DNA of 64,000 bases from an uncultured bacterium (lineage in GTDB: Bacteria; Krumholzibacteriota; Krumholzibacteriia; LZORAL124-64-63). The notes beneath the pieces were generated by a model. The model made no database searches, was not told the origin of the DNA, and saw only the letters and a program-made list of their open reading frames with translations. Shown in pieces: positions 18,994 through 22,553 of this stretch (position 1 is the stretch's first letter; each line of letters begins with the position of its first letter). The position numbers and the translations under genes were made by a program. The stretch is from positions 352,001 through 416,000 of the forward strand of contig CAVSZB010000003.1 in assembly GCA_963732385.1 (NCBI GenBank), given 5' to 3'.

Positions 18994-21015
18994 ATGAAAA
19001 AGGTTTTCCTGGGCACCGCCATGTGCGCGTGCCTTCTGATGGCTGGCCTGGCGTCAGCCCAGTTGACCGCCATTGATACGATCCAGACCTACAACCCCGT
19101 CACCGGTGCGCCCACCCCGTTCCCCGTCTCGGGCACCATCGTAACCGTTCAGGGTACTCTTTATGTTCTCAAGGGCAGTTTCAACACCGGTTCCCACTAC
19201 ATCCAGGCTGCCGACGCTGGCATCCAGGTGTTCAACTCCACCCTGAACCTGGGCACGATCGGCGACCTGATCGAGGTCACAGGAGCGGTCGGGGTATTCT
19301 CGAACGAAATCCAGATCACCAACCTGACGAACAACTCGATAATCTCGCATCCGGGCGAGCCGGCCCCGCTCGTCAAGACGATTTCCCAACTGGTGCACTG
19401 GACCGGCGGCGTTCCTCCCAGAGTCAATGACTACGAGAGTGTCGGCAGTTTCGTCCGGGTGACGGGCAACATCGCTACCGCCCCCACGAACAACACCCCG
19501 ACCTCGGACAAGCAGTTCAGCATCATGGCGGACGGCGACACCGTGATCGTTTTCGTCGATAAGGACACCGCCATCGATGTCGGCGCGGTCGCCGTGGGAG
19601 ATCTCTATCAGATCGACGCGGCCTGCGTGCGGTACGGCACAGCGCCGCCCGTGATCGAGCTCAAGCCGCGCTCCCAGAACGACCTGGTCGAAAACCCGGG
19701 GAGTCCGGCTCCCGCCATCGAGAACGTGATCTCTTCGAACTATCATCCGCTGTCGACCACGGCGCTGACCATCAGCGCGGACATCACCAGCGGCGGGGGC
19801 ACGATCAGTGGCGCCACGCTCTACTGGCGCAACAGCGCGGGCGACAGCCTCGGCGCCTACACAGCCACTCCCATGACTTTGGGCACGGCGCCGAAGTACT
19901 CCGGCGTCATCCCGACGCCGCACTCGGGCATCCGGGTGGACTACTACGTCTCGGCGACCGACAACCTGGCGCAGACCACCCTGTCGCCGTCCGCGGCGCC
20001 GACGGCCCACAACGAGCTGGCGGTCGGCTTCACGACGATCCACGACATGCAGTACGTTGACCCGAACGCCGTGAGCCAGTCGTCACCGTACCGCTACAAG
20101 GTCGTCAACCTCGAGGGCATCGTCACCTACGGTACCGGCGAGGCCGGCGCGGTCAGCAAGTTCATCATGGAGACGTCCACGGGCGGCCCGTTCAGCGGCG
20201 CCCTGGTCTACGACGGGACCGGCACCTACGGCGCGGTCTACACGGGGGACCTGGTCCAGGTCGGCGGTCGCATTGACGAGTATCTCGGCTGCACCGAAGT
20301 TCTGCCCTTCCGCAAGCCCGACGGCGTGCTTGCCGGTTCCACCGGCGCTCCGGTCTCCGTGCTCGCCTACAACAGCAAGTTGCCGGCGGCGATGTACGTT
20401 TCGACCCGGGTCCTGGCCGACGGCGTCTCGACCGATGGCAACGGCTACCTGGGCGAGGCCTACGAGACCTGCCGTGTCCGCACGAAGGCCTCGCTGGTGC
20501 TTCCCAACGCCCCTCTTCCCTCCCGCGGTTTCGGGATTACCGACACCGGCGTCCTGGCGGATTCGGTGCGAGTGGTCCCGCTGGTCGACCTCACGTATCC
20601 GCACACCGCGGGTGACTTCGTGGTGGTCGAGGGCTGGATGGATTACAACGGCACGTACATGCTTCGCCCCGTCCGGGACGAGGACATCGCGTACGGCATC
20701 ACCGGCGTCGGCGACACCACGCCGCAGGTGCTGCCCGCGGGCGGTTTTGTCGGCGTGTCTCCGAACCCGTTCAATCCCCGCACGGAGATCGAGTTCGTCC
20801 TGACACGGTCGAATCTGGCCCAGTTGAACATCTACAACCTGCGCGGCCAGCTGGTGCGCTCGTTGGCCAATGGTCACCTGGAAGCCGGGACCTACACGCT
20901 GGTCTGGGACGGGACCGACGAAGCCGGCAACCGCATGGGCAGCGGGACCTTCTTCGCCCGCCTGCGCATCGGCGCCGAGGTCATGCAGGTCCAGAAGCTT
21001 TCGCTCGTGAAGTGA
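18994..21015 (+). CDS. Secreted protein with OB-fold-like repeats and C-terminal FlgD-Ig (PNPFNP) domain
   Basis: Signal peptide MKKVFLGTAMC...ASAQ, repeated 'GD.v.V.G.v' OB-like units, C-terminus SPNPFNPRTEIEF...IYNLRGQLVR...WDGTD..G...GSGTFFARL...KLSLVK. Its current stop TGA is completed by the IS end. Confidence 0.8.
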   Translation: MKKVFLGTAMCACLLMAGLASAQLTAIDTIQTYNPVTGAPTPFPVSGTIVTVQGTLYVLKGSFNTGSHYIQAADAGIQVFNSTLNLGTIGDLIEVTGAVGVFSNEIQITNLTNNSIISHPGEPAPLVKTISQLVHWTGGVPPRVNDYESVGSFVRVTGNIATAPTNNTPTSDKQFSIMADGDTVIVFVDKDTAIDVGAVAVGDLYQIDAACVRYGTAPPVIELKPRSQNDLVENPGSPAPAIENVISSNYHPLSTTALTISADITSGGGTISGATLYWRNSAGDSLGAYTATPMTLGTAPKYSGVIPTPHSGIRVDYYVSATDNLAQTTLSPSAAPTAHNELAVGFTTIHDMQYVDPNAVSQSSPYRYKVVNLEGIVTYGTGEAGAVSKFIMETSTGGPFSGALVYDGTGTYGAVYTGDLVQVGGRIDEYLGCTEVLPFRKPDGVLAGSTGAPVSVLAYNSKLPAAMYVSTRVLADGVSTDGNGYLGEAYETCRVRTKASLVLPNAPLPSRGFGITDTGVLADSVRVVPLVDLTYPHTAGDFVVVEGWMDYNGTYMLRPVRDEDIAYGITGVGDTTPQVLPAGGFVGVSPNPFNPRTEIEFVLTRSNLAQLNIYNLRGQLVRSLANGHLEAGTYTLVWDGTDEAGNRMGSGTFFARLRIGAEVMQVQKLSLVK

Positions 21016-21056
21016 TATGGAACGGCTAGTCAAACGTTGATTAGTGCGCTCCTCGG

Positions 21057-21085
21057 GGGCCCCGGCGACAGCCGGGGCCCTTCTT
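21057..21085. terminator. Terminator-like hairpin inside the IS right end
   Basis: GGGCCCCGGC-GACA-GCCGGGGCCC followed by TTCTT on +. Lies downstream of both the host gene (+) and the IS RNA (-). Confidence 0.6.
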
Positions 21086-21099
21086 ACGCCTGGTTGTTG

Positions 21100-21260
21100 G
21101 GAGCAGGGACTGCAACGACGGTTGATCAGACTGATATCCGCGGGTTGGTTACCGCACACAATTCTGTCCGTCTCGGGGTGACCTCCGTCTAACACCGCGG
21201 GTCCAGCTCATGGCCTGCCGCATACTTCAAACGAGGATTCCCCTGACCGGTCCCTGCTCC
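21100..21260 (-). ncRNA. Putative IS110 bridge/seek RNA
   Basis: Closed by an 11-bp perfect stem (21250-21260 with 21100-21110). Two internal loops: TGAAGTA matches the empty target and ATATCAG matches the circle junction. Confidence 0.8.
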
Positions 21261-21270
21261 ACTCAGCGTC

Positions 21271-22386
21271 CTAGTGTTGCTTCGTGGCTGCGACCCACAT
21301 CGCGGCCCACACGAATCCACTCAGTTCACGGGCCACCGCGACGGCGACCTTGTTGCGATGCTTCGTCTTCTCCAGGTGATGGAATCGCCTGCCGAGTCGA
21401 TGCTGGGCCTTCACGGCGATCGCGACCATTTCAGGATCCTGACCCATCCGGCGGCGATCGAGGATCAAGGTCGAGCCTACCCTGTACTGGTAGTGCCAAG
21501 CGGCTTCGACTAGGATCCGTCTTAGGAATGTGTTGCCCGCCTTGGTGATCGAACCACGATGTTGTTGCTCGCCGCTGGAGTGCTCCTTTGACACCAACCC
21601 CGTGTACCCCATCAGCCGGTCCGGGTGACTGAAGCGACGGATGTCTCCGATCTCGGTGACCAACGTCATCGCCGTCAGGGTCTTGATGCCGCGGAAGCAC
21701 TGCAGCGCCTCGACGGTCGCCCGCCAGGGCTCGCGACAGGACCACTGCTCGATCTCGGCGTCGAGCGACCGCTGCTGAGACTCGAGGTACTCCAGGTGGT
21801 CGAGGTCGTAGGCCAGGACCGTCTGCAGCGGGCCCGTCATCTCGCGGCGCAACGTGGCCAGCCAGGCGCGATGCTGCTTCGTCCAATTGCTTTTGGTCCC
21901 GGTGAAACGATGTCCGTGGGTAGCCAGCACCCGGACGATCCGATGCTTGCTGCGCACGATCTGACGCTGCAGCGACAGTCGGCATCGCACGAGCTGGCGT
22001 ACCGCCTCTTGCTCCTCATCTGGTATCGTCACCGCCCGCAGATGGCCGCTGCGATACATGCGCGCCAAGCGCACGGCATCCAGGCGATCGGTCTTGCGGT
22101 GATCGCCCGGGCAGCGGGGGATCAGACTCGGGGCGATCACCTCGCACTGGAACCCATCGTGGTCCAGGGCCCGCTGCAGGACGTAGCCTGCACCCGAGGC
22201 CTCGTAGCATGCCCGCGGGGAGCCCTGCTTGGTCAAGCGGCGGAAGAGCCGGCGAACCGCGTTGAGGTCCCCTGGCAACCGGACAATCTCCGGGATGTCC
22301 TTGTCTCCAAAGAGGATCGCCGCGGTGATGGACTCCTGGTGAACATCCATGCCCACCCAAACGGTCGCTGTGCTATCGTGTGTCAT
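21271..22386 (-). CDS. IS110 family transposase/recombinase
   Basis: RuvC-like DEDD (GMDVH, CYEAS, KTDRLDA), C-terminal domain EIGDIRRF...YTGLVSKEHSSGE...GSITKAGN...LVEAAW, AVAREL. ORF intact. Confidence 0.95.
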   Translation of the reverse strand: MTHDSTATVWVGMDVHQESITAAILFGDKDIPEIVRLPGDLNAVRRLFRRLTKQGSPRACYEASGAGYVLQRALDHDGFQCEVIAPSLIPRCPGDHRKTDRLDAVRLARMYRSGHLRAVTIPDEEQEAVRQLVRCRLSLQRQIVRSKHRIVRVLATHGHRFTGTKSNWTKQHRAWLATLRREMTGPLQTVLAYDLDHLEYLESQQRSLDAEIEQWSCREPWRATVEALQCFRGIKTLTAMTLVTEIGDIRRFSHPDRLMGYTGLVSKEHSSGEQQHRGSITKAGNTFLRRILVEAAWHYQYRVGSTLILDRRRMGQDPEMVAIAVKAQHRLGRRFHHLEKTKHRNKVAVAVARELSGFVWAAMWVAATKQH

Positions 22387-22515
22387 GGCTGGGTCCTTTC
22401 GTGAGCGGGAGTTTCGGCTCCCTAGTGTCCCTGGTCCGTGCGGACTAACACACGATACCCGAGGGGCCCAGCCGTTCCATTATGTCTAGCGCATTCCGCG
22501 CACGGAAAACGCAGG

Positions 22516-22553
22516 GCGACCCCGGGGGCTTCGGCTCCCGGGGTCGCGTCTTT
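22516..22553. terminator. Bidirectional intrinsic terminator (original terminator of the FlgD-Ig gene)
   Basis: GCGACCCCGGGGGC-TTCG-GCTCCCGGGGTCGC with a cUUCGg loop and short T runs on both strands, between convergent genes. Confidence 0.7.

Follow-up and report, generated by a model that had tools for sequence, protein, structure and literature searches.

A 64,000-nucleotide (nt) stretch of DNA from an uncultured bacterium of the phylum Krumholzibacteriota (assembly GCA_963732385.1, contig CAVSZB010000003.1, positions 352,001 to 416,000; the whole stretch is hereafter the window) carries an insertion sequence (IS) of the IS110 superfamily in the stop codon of a gene whose product ends in a FlgD-Ig/type IX secretion system (T9SS)-like sorting domain, referred to below as the C-terminal domain (CTD). 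We hold it very probable that this is an RNA-guided element of the IS1111 type, from a lineage programmed to gene ends in expanded sorting-signal families. With somewhat less assurance, we consider it likely that the stop codons of expanded C-terminal sorting-signal families form a distinct and repeatedly evolved IS110/IS1111 target class, in which two or more unrelated lineages recognise where an open reading frame (ORF) ends, one guide being an anti-stop triplet, rebuild the stop, and leave hairpin-bearing ends as the new 3' ends of secreted-protein genes. To the same likely reading belong the suggestions that the guides flag a second, unannotated sorting motif ([WF]GxVKxx[YF]R*, where the asterisk denotes the stop) and that the target of some wider-family members may be a single conserved gene end, for example that of dnaK.

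Excision in silico of window positions 21014-22487, an intact element of 1474 bp, gives CTC GTG AAG TAG CGC. With the element in place the gene finishes with AAG TGA, the GA of this stop being IS-derived, and the protein end ...QKLSLVK* is the same in both states, so the junctions and the rebuilt stop proposed in a preliminary description of the window are upheld. Judged from the sequence, the insertion is harmless at the level of the protein only. The host gene, the element and its main parts are as follows.

18994-21015, plus strand: host gene of 673 amino acids, with a signal-peptide-like start (judged by eye) and a C-terminal FlgD-Ig/T9SS-like sorting domain, ending ...QKLSLVK*
21014-22487, minus strand (opposite to the host gene): IS1111-type insertion sequence without target duplication, as given by its junctions and empty alleles
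21271-22386, minus strand: DEDD recombinase of 371 amino acids (PF01548 and PF02371; NF033542 at 239 bits, cut-off 140)
21017-21027, plus strand: right subterminal inverted repeat, 11 bp, 3 bp inside the end
22470-22480, plus strand: left subterminal inverted repeat, 11 bp and perfect, 7 bp inside the end

The host gene matches PF13860 at residues 609-653 (E 3.8e-10) and scores 21.8 bits against TIGR04183, below the cut-off of 23. Many target genes in relatives match PF18962 weakly, some of them above the cut-off, and the genome carries above-cut-off PorV and SprA_N matches. The other three PNPFN genes in the window end LAG*, LAR* and LIR* and are all unoccupied, as the preliminary description had said.

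The empty allele sought in that description was found in a relative of the same genus (G001; genomes, contigs and loci are denoted G, C and L, the window lying on C3 of genome G000). The G001 sequence reads CTCGTGAAGTAGCGC, containing the expected AAGTAGCGC, with CTCGTGAAG TAG CGC at the stop and the same hairpin behind it as in the window. In a second relative, G002, the orthologous site (L233:2005-2030) reads AAG TGA TC TAG CG, apparently a 5-bp scar derived from both IS termini, which suggests earlier occupation and imprecise loss. Contigs from three of four public sequencing runs join 21011/21012 to 22487 and so skip the element; they were collected at a likeness threshold of 88 and therefore belong to relatives, with one contig per run at depth 2-3.

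BLAST found three copies of the element in the genome (99.7-100% identity), all of them in stop codons of FlgD-Ig genes (SLVK*, TLVK* and TLVK*) whose empty forms would be AAG TAG, AAG TAA and AAA TAG. Copy B has empty paralogues in the same genome with a matching GTGAAG TAA TCCGG. Five paralogues of about 1050 codons with EKMTLVK* ends and common downstream sequence (G000:C3:187267, 192594 and 196564; C4:90455; C7:175702) comprise one occupied and four empty sites. Another LVK* stop (C8:445414) carries a remnant of a right end that resembles a relative at 86% over 111 nt, and there are two weaker candidates (C3:169062 and C7:1313178). The genome holds 87 FlgD-Ig matches, 47 ending in R and 31 in K. 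The preliminary description had called for a test of enrichment of TGAAG/TAG at such ends, and the finding of all three copies there has P = 2.2e-4 against the 167 TGAARTAR sites of the genome (164 empty and 3 occupied); with only the 37 of these that lie outside predicted genes as background, P = 0.021, on a crude, home-made model of 2919 genes that recovers 76 of the 87 FlgD stops. An assembly or alignment artefact, or chance at a single locus, might be feared, as most of the data are metagenome assemblies, in which contigs frequently break off at repeats (4 of the 55 elements described next are unreadable for this reason). We give this explanation practically no weight, and regard it as refuted by three different host genes in a nine-contig assembly, by empty alleles in other genomes and runs, and by repetition of the pattern in dozens of genomes.

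The phylum was searched (208 genomes) with a donor-loop pattern that is independent of the target. Matches numbered 55, spread over 35 genomes; the reversed control had none. By hand tally, 35 of these elements lie at CTD stops, 12 at stops of a second ending described below (class 2), 4 at contig ends, 2 abut other IS110 elements, and 2 lie elsewhere (L184 and L188). Sorting-signal stops thus account for 47 of the 55, or 47 of the 51 readable, and CTD stops for 35 of the 51, which bears out the suggestion of a multi-copy safe harbour at FlgD-Ig gene ends. A control on reading frames used 43 flanks of 600 nt or more; an ORF of at least 150 codons runs up to the junction in 36 of them, versus 9 and 0 for the other frames. 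A loose 12-mer pattern was dropped because it was indistinguishable from its control.

How the element would find these stops is suggested by a predicted RNA in its non-coding stretch, whose parts are these.

21100-21260, minus strand: predicted bridge/seek RNA, whose internal loop would bind the target and whose multiloop the donor, from folding and covariation
21223-21229, minus strand: guide 1, TGAAGTA, equal to the last five coding bases plus the TA of the stop, from covariation
21190-21192, minus strand: guide 2, TTA, the complement of the stop triplet (TAA; TAG via wobble), followed by GAC
21125-21137, minus strand: donor guide region GATATCAGTCTGAT, matching the circle junction ATATCA/GAC, by direct reading

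The region 21090-21262 folds better than its shuffles (minimum free energy z = -3.0). A consensus fold of 11 relatives shows two-sided changes in 8 of 26 pairs and leaves both guides, the strands of the internal loop, unpaired; Rfam holds no family that reaches cut-off for the predicted RNA. The TGAAGTA noted earlier in the IS RNA is indeed there, on the minus strand at plus-strand positions 21223-21229. Guide 1, the 5' strand, covaries with target positions -6 to -1 as coding-strand sequence (z 6-15.5, 163 elements), and guide 2, the 3' strand, shows complementary covariation with the stop (z 5.3-7.5). In the 31 elements with both flanks (one, L011, with a doubtful left-end call), guide 2 pairs at the three stop positions in 31, 30 and 31 cases, and at the next three positions, wobble included, in 16, 11 and 18. 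The GAC after it may be a handshake to the left end. The word read would be about 8 nt, TGAAR plus the stop triplet; this part of the target proposed earlier stands, and the full GTGAAGTAGCGC does not. A per-position guide table was set aside for claims about wobble, being contaminated by mis-extracted guides of a second lineage. The donor guide region changes along with the right end in L008/L194 (ATACTA); a genome-wide donor covariation scan was uninformative because invariant columns dominate.

Agreement between guide and target at the last codon was found in 44 of 61 cases, versus a shuffled mean of 28.5 and maximum of 38, with some guides mis-extracted. Read by hand, switches of the guide match the protein end: TGCGC-TG at LVR* (TGA) in L008, TGCGG at LLR* in L187, ATCGG at LYR* in L201, TTCGG at LFR* in L293, and TTTAT at Y* in L262/L304. 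On this sequence evidence the guides would direct RNA-guided targeting of the stop, by an RNA that is presumably expressed.

Two findings extend beyond the preliminary description, namely a second gene family and an unrelated IS110 lineage. The class-2 ending is [WF]GxVKxx[YF]R*, in fuller form V[PA]xxxxS[WF][GS]x[VI]Kxx[YF]R*. A second IS110 element of the genome (about 41% identity) lies on C6 at the stop of a gene ending SWSAVKSLYR*, and two remnants lie at like ends.

G000:C6:55399 (minus strand), C5:377574 (plus strand) and C4:12199 (minus strand): loci of the class-2 motif family

A pattern search gives 19 such endings in the genome, about 17 of them real by eye (for example at C3:23320, on the contig of the window). 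Four proteins with the motif had no Pfam match, no NCBIfam family was found, and the few proteins tried had no match in the Atlas. Class 2 looks like an undescribed sorting signal, and a second IS lineage has it as its target. In a quick tree of 94 transposases, all 34 CTD-labelled rows fall in one clade of 47 (Shimodaira-Hasegawa-like approximate likelihood ratio test, 100), together with two class-2 rows that were retargeted and 11 rows labelled short, other or long ORF, and six class-2 rows form a separate clade. On a possible independent origin of the K/R and KxxYR lineages the trees give a mixed picture: the quick tree separates the two, and in a 28-row tree they group with L252, whose twin L286 sits at a gene stop; an approximately unbiased test rejects K/R plus KxxYR as one clade only with L252 left out (p 0.004).

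The unrelated lineage is a third IS110 element (27.5% identity over 189 amino acids; 405 amino acids), with its non-coding region upstream of tnp and the same orientation as the gene. It occurs at CTD K-stops. At L333 and L335 it stands alone; at L226 and L309 the first element is present too, and the third separates it from the CTD stop. Given its place in L226, one or both of the nested phylum cases also belong with the CTD-stop sites. The end of this third element supplies TAG, so the stop is recreated, and by eye its upstream non-coding region contains a Leu-Lys-T word. The same element is also present in L229 and L334, in both of which it extends off the contig. L226 holds in addition a non-autonomous version, with tnp deleted and the left end fused to the RNA, which adjoins a 3' end like that of transfer-messenger RNA or tRNA.

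A scan of metagenomes gave 93 matches, of which 69 remained after deduplication and parsing: 27 at CTD stops, 5 at class-2 stops, 31 at other sites and 6 short. Named carriers at CTD stops include records of Krumholzibacteriota, Eisenbacteria, Zixibacteria and Ignavibacteria. A looser pattern run over all genomes gave at least 119 stretches, with 5 CTD sites in 79 parsed among the matches listed. Members in Acidobacteria, Actinomycetota and other groups are mostly off stops (7 of 46 in frame, versus 6 and 0), and they carry the TGA-forming end as well. Some wider-family members sit at ordinary gene stops, namely L034 (nitroreductase), L045 (DUF2252) and L286 (a frame of at least 461 amino acids), and a milder stop-codon bias may be general in the wider family. 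Another such member, L273, with guide GGTGAACTA, lies at an end ...AVDADFEVVN* that we take to resemble the C-terminus of DnaK; its flank is 79 nt only. At L009/L023 (G025), a 41% identical IS lies beside a GTTAGGC repeat that looks attC-like by eye, and is possibly an attC-targeting relative with the same ends.

Several observations weigh against a lineage tuned to sorting-signal ends. The TGA-forming end is also present in 107 of 111 insertions at non-sorting-signal sites; as it is common to relatives that are not at stops, we view it as an inherited pre-adaptation, and the idea that it evolved to rebuild stops was rejected on the same ground. L184/L005 fits its guide yet lies away from sorting-signal stops, the flank of L307 does not match its K guide, L290 lies at a non-CTD K ending, and L317 has a K guide at a class-2 stop, which may represent mobilisation in trans, given that donor ends are shared. 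Guide bases -7 and -6 mismatch the Val codon of all three local targets. The z-scores and shuffles for guide and target overstate significance because relatives are not independent. Finally, the 164 empty TGAARTAR sites comprise 128 antisense in genes, 2 sense, 19 intergenic, 7 at other stops and 8 at FlgD stops, and with 130 matches inside genes the guides alone do not define the gene family, so that selection or an extra determinant is needed.

These numbers invite an explanation by survivor bias only, in which an arbitrary 8-mer guide hits all matching sites alike, harmless insertions persist, and nothing in the guide is tuned to sorting-signal endings. FlgD stops are 11 of the 37 non-disruptive sites, so that three out of three is then only modestly surprising; wider-family members do occur at ordinary stops (L034, L045, L286 and L273); and 12 of 25 non-CTD metagenome flanks are in frame, versus 3 and 0. 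We nevertheless consider this unlikely. A share of about 30% CTD among safe sites, a figure measured in this genome only, would not yield 35 CTD sites versus one or two others across the phylum, where guides change, the new word fits another sorting-signal ending (K, R, YR, FR or Y) and is no random one, and an unrelated lineage with a Leu-Lys-T word occupies the same sites. Purifying selection belongs to the guide-tuned reading as well, and the alternative denies only the tuning. That the phylum-wide CTD bias is far above 11 of 37 is a hint of some further cue.

A candidate for such a cue is the structure behind the stop, where two hairpins are relevant in the window.

21057-21080, strand not assigned: IS-borne GC hairpin about 40 nt past the new stop, from folding
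22516-22552, plus strand: the host gene's own hairpin, which the insertion has displaced, from folding; the same hairpin stands right behind the empty stop in G001 and G002

Both had been described earlier as terminator-like or as a terminator. The hairpins are there, but neither was called by a terminator scan of the plus strand; the one at 21057-21080 might terminate the host mRNA, the bridge RNA, or both. In a second alternative, which we regard as possible though the less probable account, the true target is a structural or transcriptional gene-end feature, such as a terminator hairpin beside the guide match, and the hits on sorting-signal genes reflect their frequent place at the end of transcription units. 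The accessible part of a report on ISPpu10 (10.64898/2026.03.19.712850) states that this element requires a target stem-loop besides base pairing. The median folding energy of the 60 nt from the stop is -25.9 at 32 occupied sorting-signal sites versus -12.9 at 21 other insertions, a comparison uncontrolled for GC content, and among matching sites in this genome it is -35.0 at CTD stops, -28.8 at other stops, -18.2 at intragenic antisense sites and -13.5 at intergenic sites. However, folding at the occupied sites does not surpass that at the 83 empty CTD stops of this genome (-24.8), the distance of the hairpin varies, and several occupied flanks have no hairpin (L221, -7.5; L217, -12.2). A feature of this kind would in any case add a cue and not replace the guides.

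Under the reading that we favour, of guides tuned to sorting-signal ends, the element would, by analogy with known IS1111 biology, form a circle whose junction creates a promoter for tnp and the RNA. Comparison shows that guide 1 repeats the final one and a half codons and the stop's first two bases, and that guide 2 is complementary to the stop triplet. If recombination takes place after the T of the stop, the right end (GA...) comes into frame, so that TAG or TAA becomes TGA and the protein is unchanged. As the hydrophobic-K/R-stop ending is conserved in dozens of FlgD-Ig/T9SS-like genes (the 87 here, 31 of them with K), it would provide a renewable, multi-copy harbour, and some guides have come to specify R*, YR*/FR* and Y* endings instead, those of the second C-terminal motif family among them. 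The guides seem too short alone, and the final pattern would need loss of intragenic insertions and probably the further cue, for example a hairpin or the end of transcription behind the stop. We infer the cleavage geometry, the neutrality for expression, the circle and the source of the extra specificity.

By its structural marks the element is of the IS1111 type, its 371-amino-acid enzyme being longer than typical. For the superfamily, it has the DEDD RuvC-like and Transposase_20 domains with an SG motif (PF01548, PF02371 and NF033542), no target-site duplication, as seen from the empty alleles, and a fixed orientation, opposite to the host gene in all three copies. Residues D14, E62, D100 and D103 and the SSG motif (270-272) were all found, and we assume their roles by analogy. 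For the family, a non-coding stretch of 257 bp follows tnp, versus 101 bp before it, and the guide that is the top-strand complement comes first. As given in the available text of 10.1101/2024.04.26.591405, IS1111 elements have subterminal inverted repeats of 11-13 bp at 7 bp (left) and 3 bp (right) from the ends, a rule with which the repeats at 21017-21027 and 22470-22480 agree, and IS1111 clade transposases are of about 330-350 amino acids; IS110-type groups with a downstream non-coding region also exist. The joined ends of the element read, in an in-silico junction, TTGACT-17 bp-CATAAT.

21028-21033, minus strand: -35 hexamer TTGACT which, with CATAAT (22479-22484) at 17-bp spacing, forms a predicted promoter on the circle only

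In a relative, L324, the right end abuts the left end directly, as in a circle junction or a tandem dimer; among the junction contigs of the public runs examined, no circle join is listed.

Here the DNA target arises from conservation at the protein level, and the host protein stays as it was after insertion. The lineages offer a set of naturally reprogrammed guides (K, R, YR/FR and Y; TAG, TAA and TGA) for study of IS1111 guide rules, wobble and core mismatch, suggest a recombinase for placing cargo directly behind a chosen stop codon, and draw attention to a C-terminal motif family that is uncharacterised and belongs to poorly known bacteria.

The closest named protein among the best 25 plasmid matches listed is an ISSfr2 family transposase (42.6% identity over 96%). 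The IS900 group of the IS110 family inserts between the ribosome-binding site and the start codon, that is at the start rather than the stop, and in arbitrary genes as opposed to one domain family. Known IS110/IS1111 harbours are mostly non-coding repeats (repetitive extragenic palindromic (REP) repeats, attC, transposon ends) or other transposases. The literature listings and abstracts searched describe no stop-codon or sorting-signal-gene target class, single cases of which may be held in supplements, ISfinder or subscription papers; in the accessible text, the term 'stop codon' has no use in PMC11208160 and PMC13626964 and solely tnp-related use in the seekRNA preprint. According to the available portions of the sources (Siddiquee et al.; 10.1101/2024.04.26.591405; PMC11187229), the IS1111-family elements ISEc11, ISKpn4, ISPst6 and ISPa11 have as targets a short linear site, attC sites or REP repeats. 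With these the window element shares the 11-bp subterminal repeats, the 7/3 bp extensions, the long non-coding region after tnp, the lack of target duplication, a junction promoter (only predicted for the window element), and a top-strand-complement guide before the bottom-strand match; it differs in its target, a coding end plus stop codon, and in a recombinase of 371 rather than about 330-350 amino acids. IS621 and ISCro4 (PMC11208160; PDB 8wt6 and 9t56), so far as their accessible descriptions go, likewise pair a DEDD recombinase with an RNA that has one loop for the target and one for the donor, but their similarity to the window recombinase is weak (E 3e-7 and 1e-6), their RNA lies upstream of tnp, and their target is REP. 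For ISPpu10, the report (10.64898/2026.03.19.712850) demonstrates a short guide match plus a hairpin cue, the latter hypothetical for the window element, and an intergenic repeat as target, unlike here. The nearest precedent for targeting conserved codons is ISEc21, of the IS110 type, which in the available text of PMC11187229 also aims at codons conserved in a multi-copy protein family, those for the DDE motif's second D in IS3 transposases. ISEc21, however, inserts inside the reading frame of another transposase, whereas the window element inserts in the stop of its host gene and leaves the protein unchanged; the kind of element is known, and what is new is the target class, general across the phylum.

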